From NCBI GenBank assembly GCA_963558405.1, contig CAUWGC010000007.1, positions 1 to 64,000 on the forward strand: a stretch of DNA of 64,000 nucleotides. Reading direction: 5' to 3'. The position numbers and the translations under genes are program-made. Shown piece by piece: positions 899 to 9,401 of the stretch (its first letter is position 1; each line of letters begins with the position of its first letter). The notes below the pieces were generated by a model, which ran no database searches, was not told where the DNA came from, and saw nothing but the letters and a program-made list of their open reading frames with translations. The DNA is from an uncultured Clostridia bacterium (GTDB lineage: Bacteria > Bacillota > Clostridia > TANB77 > CAG-508).

Positions 899-938
899 AT
901 AAAAACCACGAAGAATTTAAGAAATTCGTGGTTTTTAT
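899..938. terminator. Bidirectional intrinsic terminator
   Basis: ATAAAAACCACGAA...TTCGTGGTTTTTAT inverted repeat between convergent genes. Confidence 0.7.
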
Positions 939-954
939 ATTTGAAATATAAGAT

Positions 955-1362
955 TCAGTTATTTTTTATTAATTCAATATATTTATTTATTAGATATTTT
1001 ATATACCTCAAATTTATTTCTGAATTGAATTTTTCTAGACCATTGTTAGTAATTTTATTATAATAGTTTACATTTTCAGAAGATGTAAAATCAATTATAT
1101 CGTTTTTAGATACATTATTTGCTATTAAATAAGAATAATAATATATGTTATTAGAGAGAAATTCCACTTCTAATAAAGAAATATTATAATATTTATGTAT
1201 CAAATCTTCTTTTATTAATTTTATTATTTCTAATCCATTTTTGGGATCTAAAGATATTTTATATTTTTTTTCTAAGTTTTTTCTTATTTTATTACTAACA
1301 TTTGATATCTCAATTAATTCATTTAGTGCATCTTCTTTTAAGAAACTTTGGTTATTATTCAA
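955..1362 (-). CDS. Hypothetical protein
   Basis: 135-aa ORF with GGAGGGG RBS; no motif recognised. Confidence 0.55.
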   Translation of the reverse strand: MNNNQSFLKEDALNELIEISNVSNKIRKNLEKKYKISLDPKNGLEIIKLIKEDLIHKYYNISLLEVEFLSNNIYYYSYLIANNVSKNDIIDFTSSENVNYYNKITNNGLEKFNSEINLRYIKYLINKYIELIKNN

Positions 1363-1384
1363 TTTTTTCCCCTCCGATGTATTG

Positions 1385-1624
1385 TTATTTATTATTGTTT
1401 TTATTTTTTAAGTATTTGTATAATTCATATAAAATAATTTCTATAAGTGATAAAAATAAAAAGATTATTACTTCAAAAGTGACATTACCGAATGTTAACA
1501 TATATGTTTTTAAAAGAATAATATTACTAATGCCTAGAATTTTTGTAATAGTAAAAGCAATAATAATATTTAAAATAGAGAAAAAAAGTATTGAAAATAA
1601 TTTTTTAAAACTTTTTTTATTCAT
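1385..1624 (-). CDS. Small two-TM membrane protein
   Basis: Two hydrophobic stretches; AAGGAGG RBS. Confidence 0.6.
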   Translation of the reverse strand: MNKKSFKKLFSILFFSILNIIIAFTITKILGISNIILLKTYMLTFGNVTFEVIIFLFLSLIEIILYELYKYLKNKNNNK

Positions 1625-1759
1625 AACACTTCCTCCTTTACTTTGTATTATTTAGTGAGAACAATAATTCTAACACATACGAATTGTAGGGATTTTGAAC
1701 TTTTATCGAATAAGTACTATATAATTACAAATACTATCTATAAAAAGGTGGAAGGTAGT

Positions 1760-1978
1760 ATGAAAATTATTGCAAATAATTACAGCCCAAAAGAGTTAAT
1801 TCGTATTATTAGAGAGTGGACAGAATTAACGCAGAAAGATTTTGGAAAGTCTATAAACCGTAGTGAGAAAGGAATTCAAGCTTTTGAATTAGGTACAAGA
1901 AATTATGATGTGAAAACACTAATTCAAATAGCTAATACACATGGTTTAAAAATTACAATTGAAAAGGAAGAAAAATAA
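1760..1978 (+). CDS. XRE-family HTH regulator
   Basis: IREWTELTQKDFGKSI...IQAFELG; ATG at 1760 after a GAAGG RBS. Confidence 0.8.
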   Translation: MKIIANNYSPKELIRIIREWTELTQKDFGKSINRSEKGIQAFELGTRNYDVKTLIQIANTHGLKITIEKEEK

Positions 1979-2051
1979 GAAGAGAGATTATTCTATCTTC
2001 CTTTTTTTATGTTCTCTCTAAATGTAATATTTATTATATCATAAATAAAAA

Positions 2052-2080
2052 ATAAAATCGCAAGTTTCTTGCGATTTTAT
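2052..2080. promoter_or_regulatory. Perfect 13-bp inverted repeat, candidate operator
   Basis: ATAAAATCGCAAG-TTT-CTTGCGATTTTAT just upstream of an XRE gene. Confidence 0.5.
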
Positions 2081-2140
2081 GAAAAAAGTCAATTTTTCTG
2101 AAATAATTATTTTAATTGTTAAAGAAAAGGAGAACTTTAA

Positions 2141-2389
2141 ATGAAAGAAATAAGAATTGGTAATATTTTGAAGAATATGAGGAATATAAATACAAATTTA
2201 ACGCAAAAAGATATAGGTAAAAAATTATCTTTATATGATACTACTATTTCAAGTTATGAAAGGGAAAATAGTCAACCGGATTTTCAGACAATTGTAAATT
2301 ATGCAGAAGTTTGTGGCTTTGAGATTAAATTATTTAATAAAAAAATTGGAAAAGAGATGTCATTAGAAGAGATGTCAAAAGAATTATAA
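2141..2389 (+). CDS. XRE-family HTH regulator
   Basis: LTQKDIGKKL...TISSYERENSQP. Confidence 0.85.
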   Translation: MKEIRIGNILKNMRNINTNLTQKDIGKKLSLYDTTISSYERENSQPDFQTIVNYAEVCGFEIKLFNKKIGKEMSLEEMSKEL

Positions 2390-2449
2390 TAATATAAAGT
2401 TTTTTAGAAACAATTTAAAAAAAGTAATTAGAACTCTGTTAAGTTCTAA

Positions 2450-2722
2450 TTACTTTTCTTTTTTATTTTTTAACCAACCCTTAGCTTCAACATCATTAAA
2501 CCTACTATCAGCAAAAAAATCAGACAAATTAGTTCCCAAACCCTCACAAATATATAATAGGTTTTCTAATCTAATCGTTTTAGTTTTTCTATTAAGAAAA
2601 AGTGTAAGGGTAGAATTATAAATACCTGTAAGACTTTCTAGTTTATATATAGAAATATTTTGTTCATTCATTAATTCTCTGATTTTTAAAGCAACTAGAT
2701 CAGAAAATTCCATAATTATCAA
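2450..2722 (-). CDS. XRE-family HTH regulator
   Basis: IRELMNEQNISIYKL...TIRLENLLYICEGL. Confidence 0.85.
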   Translation of the reverse strand: MIIMEFSDLVALKIRELMNEQNISIYKLESLTGIYNSTLTLFLNRKTKTIRLENLLYICEGLGTNLSDFFADSRFNDVEAKGWLKNKKEK

Positions 2723-3011
2723 TCCTTTCTAAAATTATAAATAATTTTATCAAAATAAAAATAAAAAACCTCTCAATAAATTGAGAGAAATACATTTAAA
2801 GTAGTTCATTTTTTTTATTTGATATGTTATAATAGAAAAAAATGTAAAAAAACGAAATATTATGTGAAACAACCCAAATAGAGAGGAGGTAATATACAAT
2901 GTAAGTTTTTTATAAAAATTAAATATAATAAAATTCACATTCATTACGAAAAGTTTCTTAAGTAAAAATGAAAAAAGAATAACTTATTATTAATTGTAAA
3001 ATCAATAATAA

Positions 3012-3269
3012 TTAATCAAATAGCTTATCGGTATTTTCAAATATTTGCTCGTAGGATATGTTTAAAACTTTACAAAAAGCAATAATTTCGAAGTCCTTTA
3101 ATAAAAGTTTTTCATTTTCTATTTGCGAAATGTCAGAATGATAAATATCTACGCCTAATAGTGCAATTTTATTAGACAATTCTCTTTGAGATAAACCTCT
3201 TAGTTCTCTGTATTTTTTTATATTTTTACCTATAACATTTGATTTACCGTTTAATTTTTTTACTTGCAT
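3012..3269 (-). CDS. XRE-family HTH regulator
   Basis: IGKNIKKYRELRGLSQRELS...ISQIEN. Confidence 0.85.
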   Translation of the reverse strand: MQVKKLNGKSNVIGKNIKKYRELRGLSQRELSNKIALLGVDIYHSDISQIENEKLLLKDFEIIAFCKVLNISYEQIFENTDKLFD

Positions 3270-3709
3270 AGTTGAATCCTTTCATATTAATTATTATGAT
3301 ACATTTTACAATATTTATTTATTTATATTGGTAGACTATTTCAAGCAAAGACTGAATTAGAAATATATTTTTGGGAAAAGTAGGAAAAATGAAAGAAAAA
3401 AGAAAATTCATAGATAAAATATGTAAAAAGCAAAATTTTGAAGATATATTGTTAAGAATAAAATTATCAAATAAAAAATTAACAATGAAAAATATATTTA
3501 AAAGTATAGAAAACAATATAGAAATAGAGGATCTTCAAAAAAGGAAGTTATATGAAGAATTGTATGATTATATTGATTATATGAATAAATGTTACAAAAA
3601 AAATCTCAAAAATGTTTTTATTTTAGGAATAGAAGAAACATTAAAAGAGATATATATAAAAAGTGATGATAAAAAGAGAAAATCGAAAAATAGAAAAGAG
3701 GAAAGAAAA

Positions 3710-4123
3710 ATGAAAGAAATCATAAAAAAAATAGAAACAAAAGGAATTATTAGGAAGTTAGATGAACTTGGAAGAATTGTAATACCGATTGAATACAGAC
3801 ATAATAAAATAGTTGATGGTAAAACAAAGGTTAAAATTGACAACATTGAAGATTTTGTTGTAGTAGAAGTATTAGAGGATAATATAAAAACATTTACAAG
3901 AAGATTTGATGACTTAGGAAGGATTGTTGTACCAGCTGAAATAAGAGATAGACTAAACTGGCAAAAAAAAGATGAAATCGAAATATGGGAATATGGTAAA
4001 TATCTAATATTACAAAAAACAAAAAAAGAATGCGTATTTTGTGGGAATAAAAAAAATCTTATAAAATATAAAAATGATATGATTTGCCAAAAGTGTAAAG
4101 AAGACTTAATTAATATTAAATAG
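3710..4123 (+). CDS. Tandem AbrB/SpoVT-domain protein with C-terminal Cys4 zinc motif
   Basis: GIIRKLDELGRIVIP and RRFDDLGRIVVPAEIR; CVFC...CQKC. The ORF is open from 3371, but the ATG at 3710 has a GAGGA RBS. Confidence 0.8.
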   Translation: MKEIIKKIETKGIIRKLDELGRIVIPIEYRHNKIVDGKTKVKIDNIEDFVVVEVLEDNIKTFTRRFDDLGRIVVPAEIRDRLNWQKKDEIEIWEYGKYLILQKTKKECVFCGNKKNLIKYKNDMICQKCKEDLINIK

Positions 4124-4247
4124 TATTTGGAAGTCTTATAGAAAAAAGAAGTTGTAAGCTTAATTATATTTCTAAATATATAAATTGACACGAGGTTATG
4201 AATGTAGTACAATTCATTAAATAAAAGATTTAGTAAAGAAGGAAAAT

Positions 4248-4808
4248 ATGAAAGAGTTTGAGATTACTTTTGAAGTATATAATGATATTAATGTATTAAA
4301 AAATGAATTAATAAAAAATAAATTTTATTATGTCGAAGAATTTGTTTTAGATGATATTTATATGTATAATCCATTAAATAATGAATTTGGTGTAAATGAT
4401 GGAAAGATTACAAATACTTTAATGCTCAGAAGCATAGATGACGAAGAAACAGAAATTATTTGTAAAAATAGACAATATAAAAATGGTCTTGAAATTGGAA
4501 CAGAAAAGACAACATTAAAAGTAGAAAATATAGAAACGGCAGAGAAACTTTTAAACTCATTGGGGTATAAGAGATTCTTAAGAATGATAGACAAAAATTA
4601 TAAATATGAAAATGATAATTATAATGCAATTATTCAAGAAGTAGAGGGATTAGGTCTATTTTTGGAGATTGAAATAAAGAATAGTAAAGATGCAGAAGTA
4701 GAAATTCAGAGATTGATAGAATTTGCAAAATCATTAAATTTGAAAATTGGAACAAAATTTGATGTTAGGAAAGCAGAACTACTATATAAAAAGATTAATA
4801 ATAATTAA
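4248..4808 (+). CDS. CYTH-domain (class IV adenylyl cyclase/triphosphatase-like) protein
   Basis: N-terminal EFEIT (ExExK-like), LGYKRFLRMIDK, EVEGLGLFLEIE. Confidence 0.75.
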   Translation: MKEFEITFEVYNDINVLKNELIKNKFYYVEEFVLDDIYMYNPLNNEFGVNDGKITNTLMLRSIDDEETEIICKNRQYKNGLEIGTEKTTLKVENIETAEKLLNSLGYKRFLRMIDKNYKYENDNYNAIIQEVEGLGLFLEIEIKNSKDAEVEIQRLIEFAKSLNLKIGTKFDVRKAELLYKKINNN

Positions 4809-4905
4809 AAGGTTGTTATATTGGCTAGAAGACTATAAAAACTTTACAAAATTAACATAAAGTGGTACAATAAATATGTGTAACATAATATAAGGTGGTG
4901 TTTAC

Positions 4906-5784
4906 ATGAGTGATACCAATTTGAATTTATATAAAATTTTTTGTGTAGTAGCAGAGTCAAGGAATTATAAGGAAGCAAGTGAAAAATTATTTGTTTCAGA
5001 ATCAACTATAAGTTCCCATATTAAGAACTTGGAGAATAAATTAGATATAACTTTGTTTTATAGAGAAAAAGATGGATTAGTATTAACTATTGAGGGAAAG
5101 AAGTTATATGATTCTATGAGTGAAAAGATAAGGGACATAGAATTTGCAGAAGAATCATTAATTCAAGAATGCGATTTCTCAAAAGCAAAACTTACAATAG
5201 GATGTCCTTCTCACATTTCTATTTCATATTTAGCAAAATGTCTAAAAAAAGTAAAAGAAGATTATCCAGATTTAAAAATTGATTTAGTTGGAGCATCTAA
5301 TTATTCAGGATTAATAGATAAACTTCAAAAGCATTTAGTAGATTTTATAATATTAGATGTTATACCAAATGAAGTTCAAAACGAAATAAAGGTAAAAGAA
5401 CTTAAAGACATAAATAATGTTTTTATATATAACAAACCTTTAAAAATAGATAATTTAAAAGAACTTGAAAATTATAATTTTATACTTAACTTTGAAAATT
5501 CAATTTCTACAAAGCAACTATTTGAGTGTTTAAATAAATATGATGTACATATAAAAGCAGACATTCATTCAGATATAACAGAAATGAGAATAGAAGAAGT
5601 AAAACAAGGACAGGGAATAGGATATGTTATAAAAGAGGCGACGGAAGATGCAATAAAAAATAGAGAATTATATGAAGTTGAATTGCCAATTTCATTGCCT
5701 AGAATAAAGATTAATTTATTATATATAGATAAATATCTTACAAAAATGGATAAAATATTTATAAAAAAATATTTGGAAAAATAG
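4906..5784 (+). CDS. LysR-family transcriptional regulator
   Basis: NLNLYKIF...ASEKLFVSESTISSHIKNLENKLDITLFYR; 292 aa. Confidence 0.9.
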   Translation: MSDTNLNLYKIFCVVAESRNYKEASEKLFVSESTISSHIKNLENKLDITLFYREKDGLVLTIEGKKLYDSMSEKIRDIEFAEESLIQECDFSKAKLTIGCPSHISISYLAKCLKKVKEDYPDLKIDLVGASNYSGLIDKLQKHLVDFIILDVIPNEVQNEIKVKELKDINNVFIYNKPLKIDNLKELENYNFILNFENSISTKQLFECLNKYDVHIKADIHSDITEMRIEEVKQGQGIGYVIKEATEDAIKNRELYEVELPISLPRIKINLLYIDKYLTKMDKIFIKKYLEK

Positions 5785-5925
5785 ATTATTAAAAAGAATA
5801 TTCTGCATGAATATTCTTTTTTGATGGAAAAAAATAGAATTCGACTTTGAAATTTTGAAATGTACTTTTAGTATATTCAGGTGTATAATTATTATGTAAA
5901 TTTATAAAGGAAGTGTCATTTTGAA

Positions 5926-7104
5926 ATGGAAAAACTAAAAGTATGTTGGAAGATAACAACAAAATGTAATCAAAATTGTAAATATTGCTTTGGATTTAAT
6001 AATATTGCTGATTTATCTTTTGAAGAAAATAAAAAAGTATTAGAAAATTTAATAAGAAATGGAATTAATCATATAACATGGACAGGTGGAGAAGCTGTGC
6101 TATATCCTAAAGTAAATCAATTAATGAAGATTTCAAAGGAAAAAGGAGTACACAATAAACTTGTAACTAATGGTATTTTCTTATCAAAAAATGATAATGA
6201 ATATGTCGAAGATATTTTGAATACATTAGATGAAATTAACTTATCCATAGATTCTACTGAAAATGAAATAAATATGGCACTTGGAAAAGAAAATAATCAT
6301 TTTGAAATAATTAAAAACTTATTGAATAAAGTAAAAGAAAAAAATATTAAAGTTGGAATAAATACAGTTGTTAGTAAACAAAACATTGATAAGTTAGCAG
6401 AGTTGGGAGAATTTTTAAACAATTATAAAATAGAAAAGTGGAAGTTTCTTAAATTTATGCCTATAAGAGAAAGATCATTGGAGAATAAGGAATTTTTTGA
6501 AATTAGCGAATCTGAACTTGAAACTAAAATAAAAGAGTTAAGAGACTTTGAAAATATAAATAAAGTTGAATATAAAAAACAAAGTGAATTTGAAAAAAGT
6601 TTAGTAGTTCTTCCAAATGCTGATATTATACAAACACAAAATGGTAAAGATCACTATTTTGGAAATGCATTAAAACAAGATGTAATAGAATTTAAAGGGT
6701 TAGGAAGTAAAATTAGAACTTTAATAGCACATAGCGATATAAAAATAATTGATAATATTGTAAATAATATGAAAAAATTAAATTATATTGATATAATAGA
6801 TGTATCAAGTGATGGAAAAGATACATTAAATAAAATCGTTAATCTAAAGCCTGAAATGGTATTTGCAGAATATAATTTTTCTACTATGGATGGATTTGAT
6901 ATTATTAAACATTCTAAAGAAAAATTAGATAAAAATATTCCTATATTTAATATGATTGTAGATAATAATTTTGAAGAAGACAATATTGATAAAATGTATG
7001 ATCTTATAGGAAATAAATTAAATTGTATTATACCAGAACAAACATCAATCGAAAGAGCTGTAGACATTATGAAAGATTATAAAGAATACAAAGAAACTAA
7101 ATAA
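5926..7104 (+). CDS. Viperin-like radical SAM enzyme fused to a C-terminal pseudo-receiver domain
   Basis: CNQNCKYC (CxxxCxxC), TGGEA, LSIDS, INTVV, KWKFL; C-terminal KIRTLIAHS...[16 protein letters not shown] receiver-like pattern. Confidence 0.75.
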
Positions 7105-7132
7105 ATGAAAAAAATAATAGGTAGGGTAAAAA

Positions 7133-7840
7133 CTATCTATTATTTTTTGTGTTTAATAAATAATTAATGCTTACTTCTAAAAATCTTCTTGGAGTAACAT
7201 CTTCGTTTTTTTCAAAAAAATTTAAAATCGAAAATTTTGGTATATCATCTTTTTCTTTAAATGAATTTAAAGATTTTAATGTTGTTCTAAAAGAGGAACG
7301 AATACCTCCTTTTGTCGTTTTAAAATCTTCGCTCACTAAAGTATAAAGTGTATCTATATCATAAGTTAATTCTGGATGGTAACAACATTTTACTATTGCA
7401 TCTCGAACTTTTTCTGAAGCAGGAGATTTTACAGGTATATTTGTTCTTAAAAACAAAGAATCTATTTTTTTATCAAGTGTAAATTGTGACATTTCTTCTA
7501 CTGTATCATAAACATCTTCGTATTCAAAAGGTTGGTAAAATGTTTTATATAGTTTTGATACATTTGAAATCTTAGGATTTTCATTGGGTGTACTGGAAAT
7601 AAGAATTGTGTTACAATTAGTTTTTTCATTTCTGCTATAAGATAATTTATCTAATATAGTGATGTAGTTTTTCAAATTCGTATCAAGTATAAATATATCA
7701 GGCTTAATTTTATCATAATATTTTAGTGCAGAAACTTCATTATTAGATTCTAATATTTTTAAGTTATTATCATTAGCAAGATACTGGCAAAGCTTCGTTT
7801 TTTCTTTACGGCTTTGAGTTGCTATAAGAACCTTAACCAT
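7133..7840 (-). CDS. Spo0A-like response regulator (degenerate receiver plus Spo0A C-terminal domain)
   Basis: KVLIA...KPDIFILD; C-terminal LDKKIDSLF...VRDAI...LYTLVSEDFKTT...IRSSFR...TPRRFL parallels Spo0A_C. Confidence 0.65.
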   Translation of the reverse strand: MVKVLIATQSRKEKTKLCQYLANDNNLKILESNNEVSALKYYDKIKPDIFILDTNLKNYITILDKLSYSRNEKTNCNTILISSTPNENPKISNVSKLYKTFYQPFEYEDVYDTVEEMSQFTLDKKIDSLFLRTNIPVKSPASEKVRDAIVKCCYHPELTYDIDTLYTLVSEDFKTTKGGIRSSFRTTLKSLNSFKEKDDIPKFSILNFFEKNEDVTPRRFLEVSINYLLNTKNNR

Positions 7841-7960
7841 ATTATCCCCCTGAAAATTTCAAAATCTGATAATATTATAACACAATATTTATGTAAACAC
7901 AATACAAATTTGGTAAAATTTAGTAAAAAATACTGATTAAGACATTGGCAAACATGAAAT

Positions 7961-8001
7961 TTGACCAATTGTTGACCAAAGATTAACCAAATATAAACCA
8001 T
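7961..8001. repeat. Four phased direct repeats with 11-bp period
   Basis: TTGACCAA (7961), TTGACCAA (7972), TTAACCAA (7983), TAAACCAT (7994). Confidence 0.6.
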
Positions 8002-8246
8002 TTAAACAATAATTTTTTAAACTAACTATAATTTCTATTAGGACAAATAGTCTTTGAGAGCAAGGAAAATAATACTTGAGATAAATTTTAATATACAACT
8101 GAAATTTAAGAGAGTAAAAATAAAGACTATTTGTAAGGAAGTGAGAATATGTAAAATATATTTGGTGAAAGTAAATAAATTTAAAATTTATTTTCCTTTC
8201 TCTTTTAGATATTTGTTCAATTTAAAAGATTGGAGAAATAGAAAAA

Positions 8247-8681
8247 ATGGAAAGGAAAAATTATTTAAAAGAAGAATTATCAAGAGAAGAAAAAGCATAT
8301 TTAATGAGAATAATTGTTAATGTTAGAAAAAAATATATTAGGGACAATTACGATTATATAAACCGTACAGATATTAACTGGGATTCTTGTGCCGATATGG
8401 AGAGTGAATCATTGTTTGAAACTGTATTGAATAATTGTGTAAATGAGTTAAAGTCTGCAATTGAATTTGAGAAACTTTTTTCTGATGAAAAATTATATAA
8501 TATTGCTAAAGCGCTATCTAAAAAAGAAAAGATGGTGCTTTTTTCATTGTATAAAGAAAATAAAAGCGTAAATCAAACGGCAATAGATATGAAATTAAGT
8601 AGAAGTACAATATGGAGAATTAAAAATGAAGCTCAAGAAAAAATTATGAAAAAGTTATTAGGAGGAAATAAAAATGTTTAA
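8247..8681 (+). CDS. Sigma-70 region-4-like protein (Tn916 Orf7/YvrI-like)
   Basis: ALSKKEKMVLFSLY...SVNQTAIDMKLSRSTIWRIKNEAQEKI. Confidence 0.7.
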   Translation: MERKNYLKEELSREEKAYLMRIIVNVRKKYIRDNYDYINRTDINWDSCADMESESLFETVLNNCVNELKSAIEFEKLFSDEKLYNIAKALSKKEKMVLFSLYKENKSVNQTAIDMKLSRSTIWRIKNEAQEKIMKKLLGGNKNV

Positions 8682-8850
8682 TAATTTTGATTTAAGTGAT
8701 GATGAAATTTTAAAGATAATAAATGATTATAAGCCATTTATTATTAAAACGAGCACATTAAAAGATGGATTTGATGAGGATTTAATGCAGGAAATTAAAT
8801 ATATAATTTATAAAAGATTAAGAAAAAATAGAAAAAATTATAAAAAATGA
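8674..8850 (+). CDS. Small Tn916 Orf8/RsoA-like partner protein (58 aa, not in the ORF track)
   Basis: MFNNFDLSDDEILKIINDYKPFI...FDEDLMQEIKYIIY; GGAGG RBS; overlaps the upstream gene. Confidence 0.6.
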   Translation: MFNNFDLSDDEILKIINDYKPFIIKTSTLKDGFDEDLMQEIKYIIYKRLRKNRKNYKK

Positions 8851-8902
8851 AACATCCATACTTGAGACTAGGATTTCTATATATAGAAGGAGGTAGAAGA
8901 AA

Positions 8903-9172
8903 ATGGATGATAAAAGAGAAAGTAAAGAGGTTTTAGAAATAAAAACATCTAAGAAAAATTTAAAAGAAACAACAAAAGTAAATTCAAAAGATGAACTAGA
9001 AGTTATTATTGCATATTCTCAAATAGTAGTTTATACATTACAGAATAGTGCAACAGAACTTACACCAAAAGCTATTAGAGAAGAAGTAAAAATGTTTTAT
9101 AACAAATTTGGAAATGAAAATGTAAAAAAGATGGCAAATGCTATTTTGAAAGAGAAAAAGGAGAAAAAATAA
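8903..9172 (+). CDS. Hypothetical protein
   Basis: 89 aa; AAGGAGGT RBS. Confidence 0.6.
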   Translation: MDDKRESKEVLEIKTSKKNLKETTKVNSKDELEVIIAYSQIVVYTLQNSATELTPKAIREEVKMFYNKFGNENVKKMANAILKEKKEKK

Positions 9173-9173
9173 A

Positions 9174-9332
9174 ATGTTAAAGTATATTGTTTTTTCTGTA
9201 ATCTCTTTCATACTAGGAATTTTTACAAGAGAGATTATAGAAATTTTAGAAAGAAAAAAGAAGTATGAAAGAATAAAAAAATTAAATGAACAAGATTTTA
9301 AAAAGGCAACAAAAAATTTAGAAATTAAATAG
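9174..9332 (+). CDS. Small membrane-anchored hypothetical protein (52 aa)
   Basis: MLKYIVFSVISFILGIFTRE...; AAGGAG RBS; translated by hand. Confidence 0.5.
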   Translation: MLKYIVFSVISFILGIFTREIIEILERKKKYERIKKLNEQDFKKATKNLEIK

Positions 9333-9401
9333 AGTTTTACTAAAGCTCTATTAGTTTCTTCATGTATAAAAGTTGTTAGTAAAAAGTTGCAGGAGGTTAC
9401 T

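Follow-up and report, generated by a model that had tools for sequence, protein, structure and literature searches.

A gene at positions 5926 to 7104 of the window (the whole analysed stretch of 64,000 nt, at the start of contig CAUWGC010000007.1 from an uncultured Clostridia bacterium) encodes a protein of 392 aa in which a radical S-adenosylmethionine (SAM) domain, closely related to the antiviral viperins, is joined to a receiver domain that has lost the residues of phosphoryl transfer. It lies in a conserved module with genes for a CYTH-like protein, a LysR-type regulator and a relative of Spo0A. The explanation we favour, which we hold tentatively and judge to fall slightly short of probable, is that a nucleotide-type radical SAM enzyme of a clade sister to the viperins operates within a transcription-factor circuit on a mobile element, with the pseudo-receiver as its docking domain and the LysR protein as a second partner. 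No description of this fusion or module was found in the literature searched, although the supplementary tables of Shomar et al. and Bernheim et al., which may list members of the clade, lay outside that search; the joining of enzyme and pseudo-receiver is hence an arrangement for which we have found no published description. An earlier reading of the window, made from sequence only, likewise did not know the fusion from described systems. The parts of the gene are:

5926..7104, forward strand: radical SAM-pseudo-receiver gene, an uninterrupted open reading frame (ORF) of 392 aa with an ATG start
5926..6690, forward strand: radical SAM domain (aa 1-255), assigned to the viperin-sister 'C-W-N/K' clade from hidden Markov models (HMMs), PDB sequences, fold and trees
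5965-5988, forward strand: CX3CX2C motif of the radical SAM domain (C14, C18, C21), from the sequence
aa 54-56, forward strand: GGE motif of the radical SAM domain (G54-G55-E56), from the sequence
6712..7104, forward strand: pseudo-receiver domain (aa 263-392), stop codon included, from profile, fold and alignment; no acidic pair and no phospho-Asp

The likeness of the N-terminal 255 or so residues to viperins, proposed in the sequence-only reading, was borne out by HMM, PDB sequence and fold. The Pfam Radical_SAM model (PF04055) spans residues 9-164 (E 4.5e-22), and the best NCBIfam match is NF038283, 'viperin family antiviral radical SAM protein', over residues 4-251 with 121.6 bits, the curated cut-off being 180 bits; the runner-up is MoaA at 81.5 bits (cut-off 284). 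The PADLOC models for prokaryotic viperins (pVips) score 135 and 134 bits. The closest sequences in the PDB are those of viperin-like enzymes and viperin (9dfu, 7.6e-15; 5vsl, 1.6e-11), and an AlphaFold2 model built from an alignment of 56 homologues, with a mean predicted local distance difference test (pLDDT) of 92.8, has the viperin-type fold of a partial barrel with a C-terminal extension. Its best Foldseek match is mouse viperin with CTP (6q2p; E 1.3e-14, template modelling score (TM) 0.75 on the target), and ranks 1-12 are all viperins or viperin-like enzymes (TM 0.74-0.83 on the target), with SkfB (E 1.7e-11), SuiB (4e-10), BlsE and MoaA below them.

The presence of SkfB and SuiB among these fold matches is one of the points that would suit a maturase of peptides (ribosomally synthesised and post-translationally modified) or of a cofactor, of the MoaA/PqqE/SkfB kind, the regulators merely controlling a biosynthetic operon. 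Homologues at JGI are named 'MoaA/NifB/PqqE/SkfB family radical SAM enzyme/CheY-like chemotaxis protein', and elsewhere a SPASM-type radical SAM protein occupies the same gene slot. However, every maturase ranks behind the viperins in sequence as well as in fold, SPASM and auxiliary-cluster domains are missing from the window protein, and no precursor-peptide, transporter or protease gene was noticed in the module among ORFs of at least 60 aa, the sizes searched, so that we regard a maturase as very unlikely. MoaA itself, the GTP 3',8-cyclase, resembles the window protein as the second-best named family and as a radical SAM enzyme acting on a nucleotide; it differs in that its score is far under the cut-off, it is the outgroup in both trees described below, and its C-terminal auxiliary cluster is absent here. 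The ESM Atlas returned only the protein's own cluster, automatically named 'Molybdenum cofactor biosynthesis protein A (Fragment)'.

Although viperins are its nearest named relatives, the protein is, by sequence criteria, a close relative outside the viperin family proper, because it falls under the family cut-off, lacks the N-x-H motif, is excluded from the pVip clade and has replacements at 15 residues conserved among pVips. Two trees, rooted on MoaA-like proteins and with a pVip sample that was mostly archaeal plus one Treponema sequence, agree in this. A FastTree phylogeny of 164 rows, comprising representatives of at least 235 aa with CX3CX2C (which leaves out two distant relatives, P0145 and P0195), every fourth pVip hit with a length of 265 aa or more, together with 22 MoaA-like ORFs from 29 loci, puts the pVips in one clade (support 99) and the window protein in another, of 54 rows (99). 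A quick IQ-TREE run on a hand-picked subset of 70 of these rows again gives one pVip clade (99), with the window protein in a clade of 18 rows (98). In both, the two clades fall inside a group that excludes the MoaA-like proteins (100), whilst the backbone between them is without resolution. The comparison by HMM and phylogeny with pVips and MoaA which the sequence-only reading had suggested sets the protein apart from MoaA and separates it from the pVips too.

Scores tell the same story. In a sample of 401 Bacillota genomes no protein reaches the NF038283 cut-off; the two copies in the window's own genome rank first (139.4 and 121.7 bits), followed by MoaA-like proteins at ~90 bits. The best of 46 sampled members of the clade has an E value of 2.9e-50 against this model, which scales to an estimated bit score of about 172, and two annotated plasmid pVips obtain 223-262 bits from the PADLOC models, compared with 135-168 for the clade of the window protein.

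Comparison of the residues themselves covered the 66 columns with a conservation of at least 85% among 27 pVips. Those retained include CX3CX2C, GGE, N82, S107-x-D-S, G120, H125, N146-T147 and W172-K173. Fifteen are replaced, namely, in M. hollandica numbering, N10, H12, N55, F56, P61, G106, R122, K146, P169, R171, Q176, N184, E219, Y228 and G235; most of them are invariant among the 27 pVips, and most of the replacements are common to the clade. They include (M. hollandica to window numbering) K146 to G144, R122 to K121, R171 to K171, Q176 to K176, E219 to K217 and Y228 to S225. An asparagine and a histidine around an aromatic residue, ahead of the cluster cysteines, are the defining mark of viperins. 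Both are invariant in the sampled pVips, whilst the window protein has C7-W8-K9 and its clade mostly C (93%) and N (56%) at these positions, giving a hallmark of C-W-N/K-I-T ahead of the first cysteine. The altered contact positions named in the sequence-only reading are thus real: alignments place CWK at viperin N-Y/W-H, HITW at K/R-I-N-F and G-I-N at K-I-N. That viperin-invariant basic residues are replaced suggests that a phosphate tail would be bound differently, or that the substrate is no triphosphate. The C-terminal R-G tail conserved in pVips is missing from the window protein.

The sequence-only reading had proposed a viperin-like enzyme with an altered substrate. The viperin-like sequence and fold and the changed pocket stand, but membership of the viperins does not. 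That the protein might nonetheless be a true prokaryotic viperin, making 3'-deoxy-3',4'-didehydro nucleoside triphosphate chain terminators against phage whilst its C-terminal domain merely tunes it, draws on the first rank of viperins by HMM, PDB sequence and fold, on the part of the viperin C-terminal extension that is retained (a PNG/PNA strand and a later Asn, family consensus 'PNGD...T.N'), on its carriage by a mobile element with PemK or ToxN in sister loci, and on kinase associations in the clade that recall the pVip-kinase linkage. The shortfall in score (121.6 against 180 bits), the exclusion from the pVip clade in both trees, the 15 replaced columns with N-x-H among them and the absent R-G tail make this, in our judgement, unlikely. 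The shared features are those of the SAM-binding core and general architecture: the partial barrel with its extension, CX3CX2C, GGE and other SAM-binding columns, and linkage to kinases in some members. The pseudo-receiver and the LysR, CYTH and Spo0A-like neighbours further set the protein apart from pVips, as far as these are described in the parts of the literature available to us.

From these searches the clade appears to be large and is as yet unnamed, lying close to the antiviral viperins. With the window protein as query, a library of representatives gave 14061 matches at E<=0.001, of which 1504 have E<=1e-10 and 76 have E<=1e-30; among the 150 listed, standalone proteins of 250-300 aa predominate. 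Viperin is one of few immune enzymes common to bacteria and humans, and its nearest relatives are an obvious place to seek new antiviral or signalling nucleotides; here is a large clade with a systematically re-tooled active site, found repeatedly among gut Clostridia from humans and livestock. A comparable case may be OpnA, which is reported to be a viperin-related but distinct radical SAM protein that works in the three-gene Ophion anti-phage system (bioRxiv 10.1101/2025.09.30.679545). Going by that description, the two differ in their partners: in Pseudomonas OpnA is paired with proteins of the PHP and PRTase types, and no partner of receiver, LysR, CYTH or Spo0A-like kind is described.

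The C-terminal domain is recognised only faintly by general models. Pfam Response_reg (PF00072) matches the whole protein with E 0.006 and 17.2 bits, and the domain alone with 19.9 bits, both under the cut-off of 30.2. A profile of ten homologous domains, however, finds solved receivers readily (CheB 4e-9, VraR 1.9e-8, CheY ~1e-7, Spo0A 4.5e-7). Modelled by itself, the domain has a pLDDT of 91.9 and a (beta-alpha)5 fold, with the DSSP order E-H-E-H-E-H-E-H-E-H, and its top Foldseek matches are all receivers (NarL, AraT, CheB and Spo0A; TM 0.72-0.86 on the target). The CheY-like fold, on which the sequence-only reading had staked its description of this domain, is therefore present, and the AlphaFold and Foldseek check it proposed gives viperins for the first domain and receivers for the second.

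The residues at the phosphorylation site are those that reading had given. In the HMMER alignment to CheB, A-H-S stands at the position of V-D-D, and Glu (in MVFAE) occupies the phospho-Asp column. Its term 'phospho-mimic' does not hold, since Glu is no family trait: among the best 120 homologues listed, 110 have Lys in this column, and the ten with Glu are the window protein and its nine closest listed relatives. A scan of one genome per species with the pseudo-receiver alignment gave 64 loci, 61 of them clear relatives (the related loci hereafter), and among these the column has K in 28, E in 6, Q in 3 and N in 1 but never Asp, the pattern having matched 38 of 49 unique ORFs. As the positive charge of Lys is no mimic of a phosphate, the domain is better named a pseudo-receiver. 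At the acidic pair the window protein has H-S and the family mostly H-N or Y-D, whilst the columns of the conserved Thr/Ser after beta4 and Lys after beta5 seem to have no conserved counterpart. By its sequence, the domain is a phosphorylation-dead pseudo-receiver of Spo0A-type ancestry.

Its nearest canonical relatives in the same genome are the receivers of a bona fide Spo0A (G000:C6:1281-2087; TIGR02875, 375 bits) and of a Spo0A-like paralogue, in line with the Spo0A type named in the sequence-only reading. With Spo0A and atypical response regulators the domain thus shares the receiver fold, the closest canonical receiver of its genome and a neighbour with a Spo0A_C-like domain; unlike them it has neither acidic pair nor phospho-Asp, with Lys instead in most members, and unlike the Spo0A receiver it has an enzyme as its fusion partner in place of an output domain, its contact with a DNA-binding domain being predicted in trans. 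Other Spo0A-like paralogues of the host, outside the two modules of this genome, lie at G000:C5:52614-53381 and G000:C2:47709-48389 (90 and 54 bits).

The fusion is a recurrent arrangement. All 120 of the best homologues listed are 392-412 aa long, with 67-100% identity at 99-100% coverage, and a viperin-like domain and pseudo-receiver share one ORF at 40 of the 61 related loci, which together rule out an artefact of assembly or annotation as its source. Of the fused ORFs from these loci, the 35 with 380 aa or more all keep the CX3CX2C motif, and the radical SAM domain appears catalytically competent by this measure. Elsewhere the pairing varies: an intact SPASM-type radical SAM protein, best matched by MoaA (61.7 bits), is fused to the same pseudo-receiver at three loci; the SPASM-type gene is split or fragmented at eleven; a viperin-like gene accompanies a separate pseudo-receiver gene at five, two of these having fusions of the radical SAM domain to a PfkB kinase (548 aa); and two are left unassigned. 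The pseudo-receiver is the constant element, being 45-49% identical when carried by the unrelated SPASM-type protein in the same gene slot. Three unusual relatives were also seen. P0145 (392 aa) and P0195 (405 aa) are distant and full-length, with a well conserved pseudo-receiver but the three cluster cysteines lost, and may be pseudo-enzymes; P0134 (326 aa) has a phage-integrase SAM-like N-terminal domain followed by the last ~60 residues of the radical SAM domain and the pseudo-receiver, and may be a product of rearrangement or an assembly chimera.

The sequence-only reading centred on the gene itself and missed its conserved neighbourhood, which holds the main functional information. The surrounding features are:

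3371-4123: AbrB/SpoVT-type protein of 250 aa, just upstream of the module (MazE_antitoxin 1.6e-9)
4248..4808, forward strand: CYTH-like protein of 186 aa, akin to triphosphate tunnel enzymes and class IV cyclases, first gene of the module (profile of 16 orthologues; upstream in 47/61 loci)
4906..5784, forward strand: LysR-type regulator of 292 aa (HTH_1 2.3e-15, LysR_substrate 7.9e-14; upstream in 55/61 loci)
5791..5823, forward strand: terminator-like hairpin and U-run right after the LysR stop codon (folding)
7133..7840, reverse strand: Spo0A-like pseudo-response regulator of 235 aa, convergent with the radical SAM gene, with 28 bp between the stop codons (58/61 loci)
8247..8681, forward strand: small sigma-70 region-4-like or helix-turn-helix (HTH) protein (weak HTH_7 and Sigma70_r4; TIGR02937 1.2e-6, below cut-off; conserved in related loci)
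10046..11695, forward strand: large serine recombinase, likely the mobility gene (Resolvase 5.6e-23, Recombinase 3.9e-19, Zn_ribbon_recom 8.4e-9)

Locus ORFs were labelled by BLASTP against the window proteins and the tally corrected by hand. The order is CYTH-like gene, LysR, radical SAM-pseudo-receiver and the convergent Spo0A-like gene, the last being downstream at 58 of the related loci, with LysR upstream at 55 and the CYTH-like gene at 47; several of the misses are contig ends. All 61 loci come from metagenome-assembled genomes of gut Clostridia type, from humans, mice, rabbits, chickens and other hosts.

The LysR protein exceeds the Pfam cut-offs (HTH_1 56.7 bits, LysR_substrate 52.0 bits). 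The hairpin behind its gene has a 13-bp stem and a folding energy of -12.2 kcal/mol (z -6.15; none of 200 shuffles fold equally well), and a hairpin with T-run is seen, by eye, at a comparable place in the other loci inspected; a scan for consensus terminators found none, this hairpin failing its G-C rule. A promoter scan was uninformative (43 sites, 36.3 expected). Between hairpin and TATAAT box, several loci have by eye a dyad resembling a LysR box, TTGA-N5-TCAA of the T-N11-A type; at the corresponding position the window (5827-5925) has TTGAAATTTTGAAA.

The Spo0A-like neighbour matches Pfam Spo0A_C over residues 127-228, the full model, with E 9.4e-5 and 22.8 bits (cut-off 25). Response_reg is weak, and TIGR02875 scores 24.7 bits where 200 are required, so that it is no Spo0A proper. 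Across 24 aligned orthologues the acceptor column holds D, N or G, and the acidic pair is missing; on this alignment it is itself a pseudo-regulator. BLASTP found no similarity between its own receiver and the pseudo-receiver of the enzyme (E 0.63).

The CYTH-like protein has no Pfam match at E<=0.01, yet a profile of its 16 orthologues finds five solved CYTH structures, among them 2een (1.1e-6), 1yem (1e-4), the class IV adenylyl cyclase 3n0y (3.7e-4) and the TTM 7ns8 (4.5e-3), and a possible sixth (2dc4, 0.021). Residues E5, R61, K73, E140, E142, K175 and E177 are invariant or nearly so, the first ExExK motif taking the form E-x-T-x-K/E in this family. At 15 of the related loci it forms the C-terminal half of an ORF of 366-384 aa whose N-terminal half is of ToxN type; Pfam was run on locus L065 only, where ToxN scores 1.1e-42 and CYTH (PF01928) matches weakly (E 0.066). 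These loci are L059, L065-L069, L076, L077, L079, L080, L083-L085, L090 and L111 (at L065, positions 4922-6076); ToxN belongs to type III toxin-antitoxin and abortive infection systems. PemK is present in many related loci. Published fusions of CYTH with viperin, in four eukaryotic viperins, likewise associate a viperin-type enzyme with a CYTH-type triphosphatase or cyclase function, although here the gene is separate and upstream and the enzyme lies outside the viperin clade; this likeness is drawn from the published descriptions.

A coupling of the enzyme to transcription factors is suggested by fusions of the clade to LysR, by the convergent Spo0A-like gene, by the constancy of the pseudo-receiver across different radical SAM partners and by complex prediction. 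In other lineages, Pfam shows the radical SAM clade fused to a complete LysR regulator in P0159 and P0177, whose LysR parts are 44% (E 2e-63) and 32% (E 3e-40) identical to the window LysR along its entire length. Such proteins are, in sequence terms, the classical fusion link between two neighbouring genes. P0223 and P0241 are, by their length, candidates for the same fusion.

Prediction of a complex between the Spo0A-like protein (24-row alignment) and the pseudo-receiver (10-row) gave a score of 0.88 (runs of 0.88, 0.85 and 0.88), whilst the best of three controls reached 0.01; of 80 solved complexes 58 attain the mark used for this score, as do 2 of 110 mismatched pairs, counts that apply here only approximately because the alignments for this pair were our own. 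The runs share at least 87% of contacts, with partner pLDDT of at least 90. Residues 83-134 of the pseudo-receiver (~340-391 of the protein, the alpha4-beta5-alpha5 side) are predicted to meet residues 123-143 and 190-204 of the neighbour, a contact that falls in its Spo0A_C-like domain and not in its receiver. The pseudo-receiver thus probably grips the DNA-binding domain of the Spo0A-like protein, as modelled. Packing of receiver against effector domain is familiar from solved full-length response regulators.

This coupling, the swapping of the radical SAM type whilst the pseudo-receiver stays, and the retention of the pseudo-receiver by P0145 and P0195 without cluster cysteines would also fit a protein whose radical SAM domain serves chiefly to sense SAM, redox state, oxygen or a nucleotide, and which regulates the life cycle of the element or host development by sequestering Spo0A-family DNA-binding domains and has no key diffusible product. 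The element is rich in regulators (XRE, AbrB-like and sigma-like), and its host has the bona fide Spo0A noted above. Nevertheless, the conservation of CX3CX2C in 35 of 35 full-length fusions together with a conserved SAM-binding core argues for selection on catalysis, and both the CYTH-like gene conserved alongside and the fusions to kinases suggest small-molecule metabolism; we consider a pure sensor improbable.

The company kept by the clade has a nucleotide flavour. Members are fused to a PfkB-type kinase (P0128, at L088 6348-7994), and in a distant genome (G038) a P-loop kinase adjoins a standalone member and a LysR gene. On an E. coli plasmid (L050, NZ_CP045714.1, 3971-5968) a related radical SAM gene stands beside genes for a deoxynucleoside kinase and NudI. 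This last protein belongs to the wider viperin-related group, with D-F-R for N-x-H and 105 bits from the PADLOC pVip model, and the three genes form an apparent operon between toxin-antitoxin pairs on a conjugative IncF plasmid. With the CYTH-like protein, the kinases and NudI as neighbours or fusion partners, we infer that the substrate is of nucleotide type. Neighbours of the clade at another locus, L004, are possible CYTH and NUDIX proteins: Pfam gave nothing at E<=0.01, the CYTH profile nothing, and phmmer against the PDB only 1yem (E 0.018). A guess of a NUDIX box in P0200 was dropped, Pfam giving no support, and in P0252 a clade member is fused to a BpsA_C or aminopropyl-transferase-like domain.

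In the explanation that we favour, of a nucleotide-type enzyme tied to transcription factors, the radical SAM domain would act, by means of SAM and its 4Fe-4S cluster, on a small molecule of nucleotide type and modify it, the substrate being held otherwise than viperin holds nucleoside triphosphates, since the viperin-invariant contact residues are replaced. The pseudo-receiver, without any phosphate input, would dock through its alpha4-beta5-alpha5 face onto the DNA-binding domain of the Spo0A-like neighbour, and enzyme and transcription factor would control each other. The LysR protein, as second partner, would probably sense substrate or product and drive transcription from the promoter of the enzyme gene. 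As to the role, an inducible function in conflict or against phage, carried as cargo by the element, seems the likeliest. Domain identities, clade placement, the loss of phospho-chemistry residues, synteny and the fusions are direct observations in this scheme; what class of substrate is used, the docking, which partner controls which and any part in defence are added by inference.

A number of points weigh against it. The complex score is the model's own confidence and may partly reflect memory of solved regulators, and the predicted interface, about a quarter of the domain, shows no enrichment of conserved columns (6 of 26). The 61 loci are related and not independent, so that synteny could be linkage alone, and the CYTH-like gene is absent at 14 of them, several cut by contig ends. 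The lack of cluster cysteines in P0145 and P0195 implies that catalysis is not universally required, and the SPASM-type protein found in the slot bears no signature specific to nucleotides. PADLOC called no known defence system in the module, giving a sub-pVip score alone, and phage and viral collections contain hardly any trace of the element.

A more elaborate scheme, to which we would give only a small chance, is a mobile signalling or immune circuit of a new kind, based on a small molecule: the viperin-derived enzyme, aided by the CYTH-like protein, would make a modified nucleotide read by LysR, and the pseudo-receiver would restrain a Spo0A-family DNA-binding domain in trans. The unphosphorylated receiver of Spo0A inhibits its own DNA-binding domain, and the restraint in trans would copy this silencing. 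Transcription would then respond directly to the state of the enzyme, as set by substrate, SAM, the integrity of the cluster and perhaps phage infection. Repeated physical coupling to transcription factors, as LysR fusions and as predicted docking of the pseudo-receiver, is unusual for a radical SAM enzyme and suggests a direct link of radical chemistry and gene control. The module is also a testable case of what a phosphorylation-dead receiver domain does.

The region has the appearance of a small integrative element that a serine recombinase mobilises, with the module as cargo. A genome of the same genus (G001) lacks a counterpart of window positions ~900-13340, short repeats aside, and one or two serine recombinase genes stand at the same end of related loci. 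Further HTH proteins lie between the sigma-like gene and the recombinase, and XRE and AbrB-like regulators are also on the element. With its AbrB-like, Spo0A-like and sigma-like genes it carries look-alikes of three regulators of the transition to sporulation, making it an example of a mobile element equipped with mimics of master sporulation regulators. Were the pseudo-receiver also to bind the host's genuine Spo0A, the element could control host sporulation.

A second, paralogous module lies in the same genome (G000 C5; L011 3-7933), its radical SAM-pseudo-receiver protein being 411 aa long and 43-45% identical. There the order is serine recombinase, PemK-domain protein, sigma-like protein, Spo0A-like protein, radical SAM-pseudo-receiver and LysR, with a canonical standalone receiver (158 aa, Response_reg 8.1e-8) in the place of the CYTH-like gene.

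An origin in a prophage is unsupported, given the near-absence from phage and viral collections: none of 48 matches in phage records and none of 223 in plasmid records covers at least 80% of the window protein, and a scan of IMG/VR with the protein as query (P0001) gave nothing. With the pseudo-receiver alignment, the IMG/VR scan gave one contig of 11.8 kb (L115) with the same cassette, on which no phage structural genes were seen. The window stretch occurs nearly unchanged in pig, bovine and other gut metagenomes. In one metatranscriptome library from chicken gut, contigs of 94-99% identity span 4885-5654, 5929-6752 and 7249-7651, thus lying separately over the LysR, enzyme and Spo0A-like genes; they are a weak hint of expression, the uncovered parts being uninformative.

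Several further ORFs were noticed at the edges of these elements. Beside the second module (L011 9203-10549) a four-helix protein like bAvd and a reverse transcriptase, recognised by eye, may form a diversity-generating retroelement, and on L115 an ORF resembling CotJC or manganese catalase, again by eye, follows the two recombinases (9125-9535). In the window, the ORF after the recombinase (11733-12686) has a hydrophobic, pilin-like N-terminus and no match in Pfam or NCBIfam. Copies of its first ~150 bases (11733-11890), with 70-86% identity, lie on many contigs in three related genomes, which places the ORF in a multi-copy gene family.

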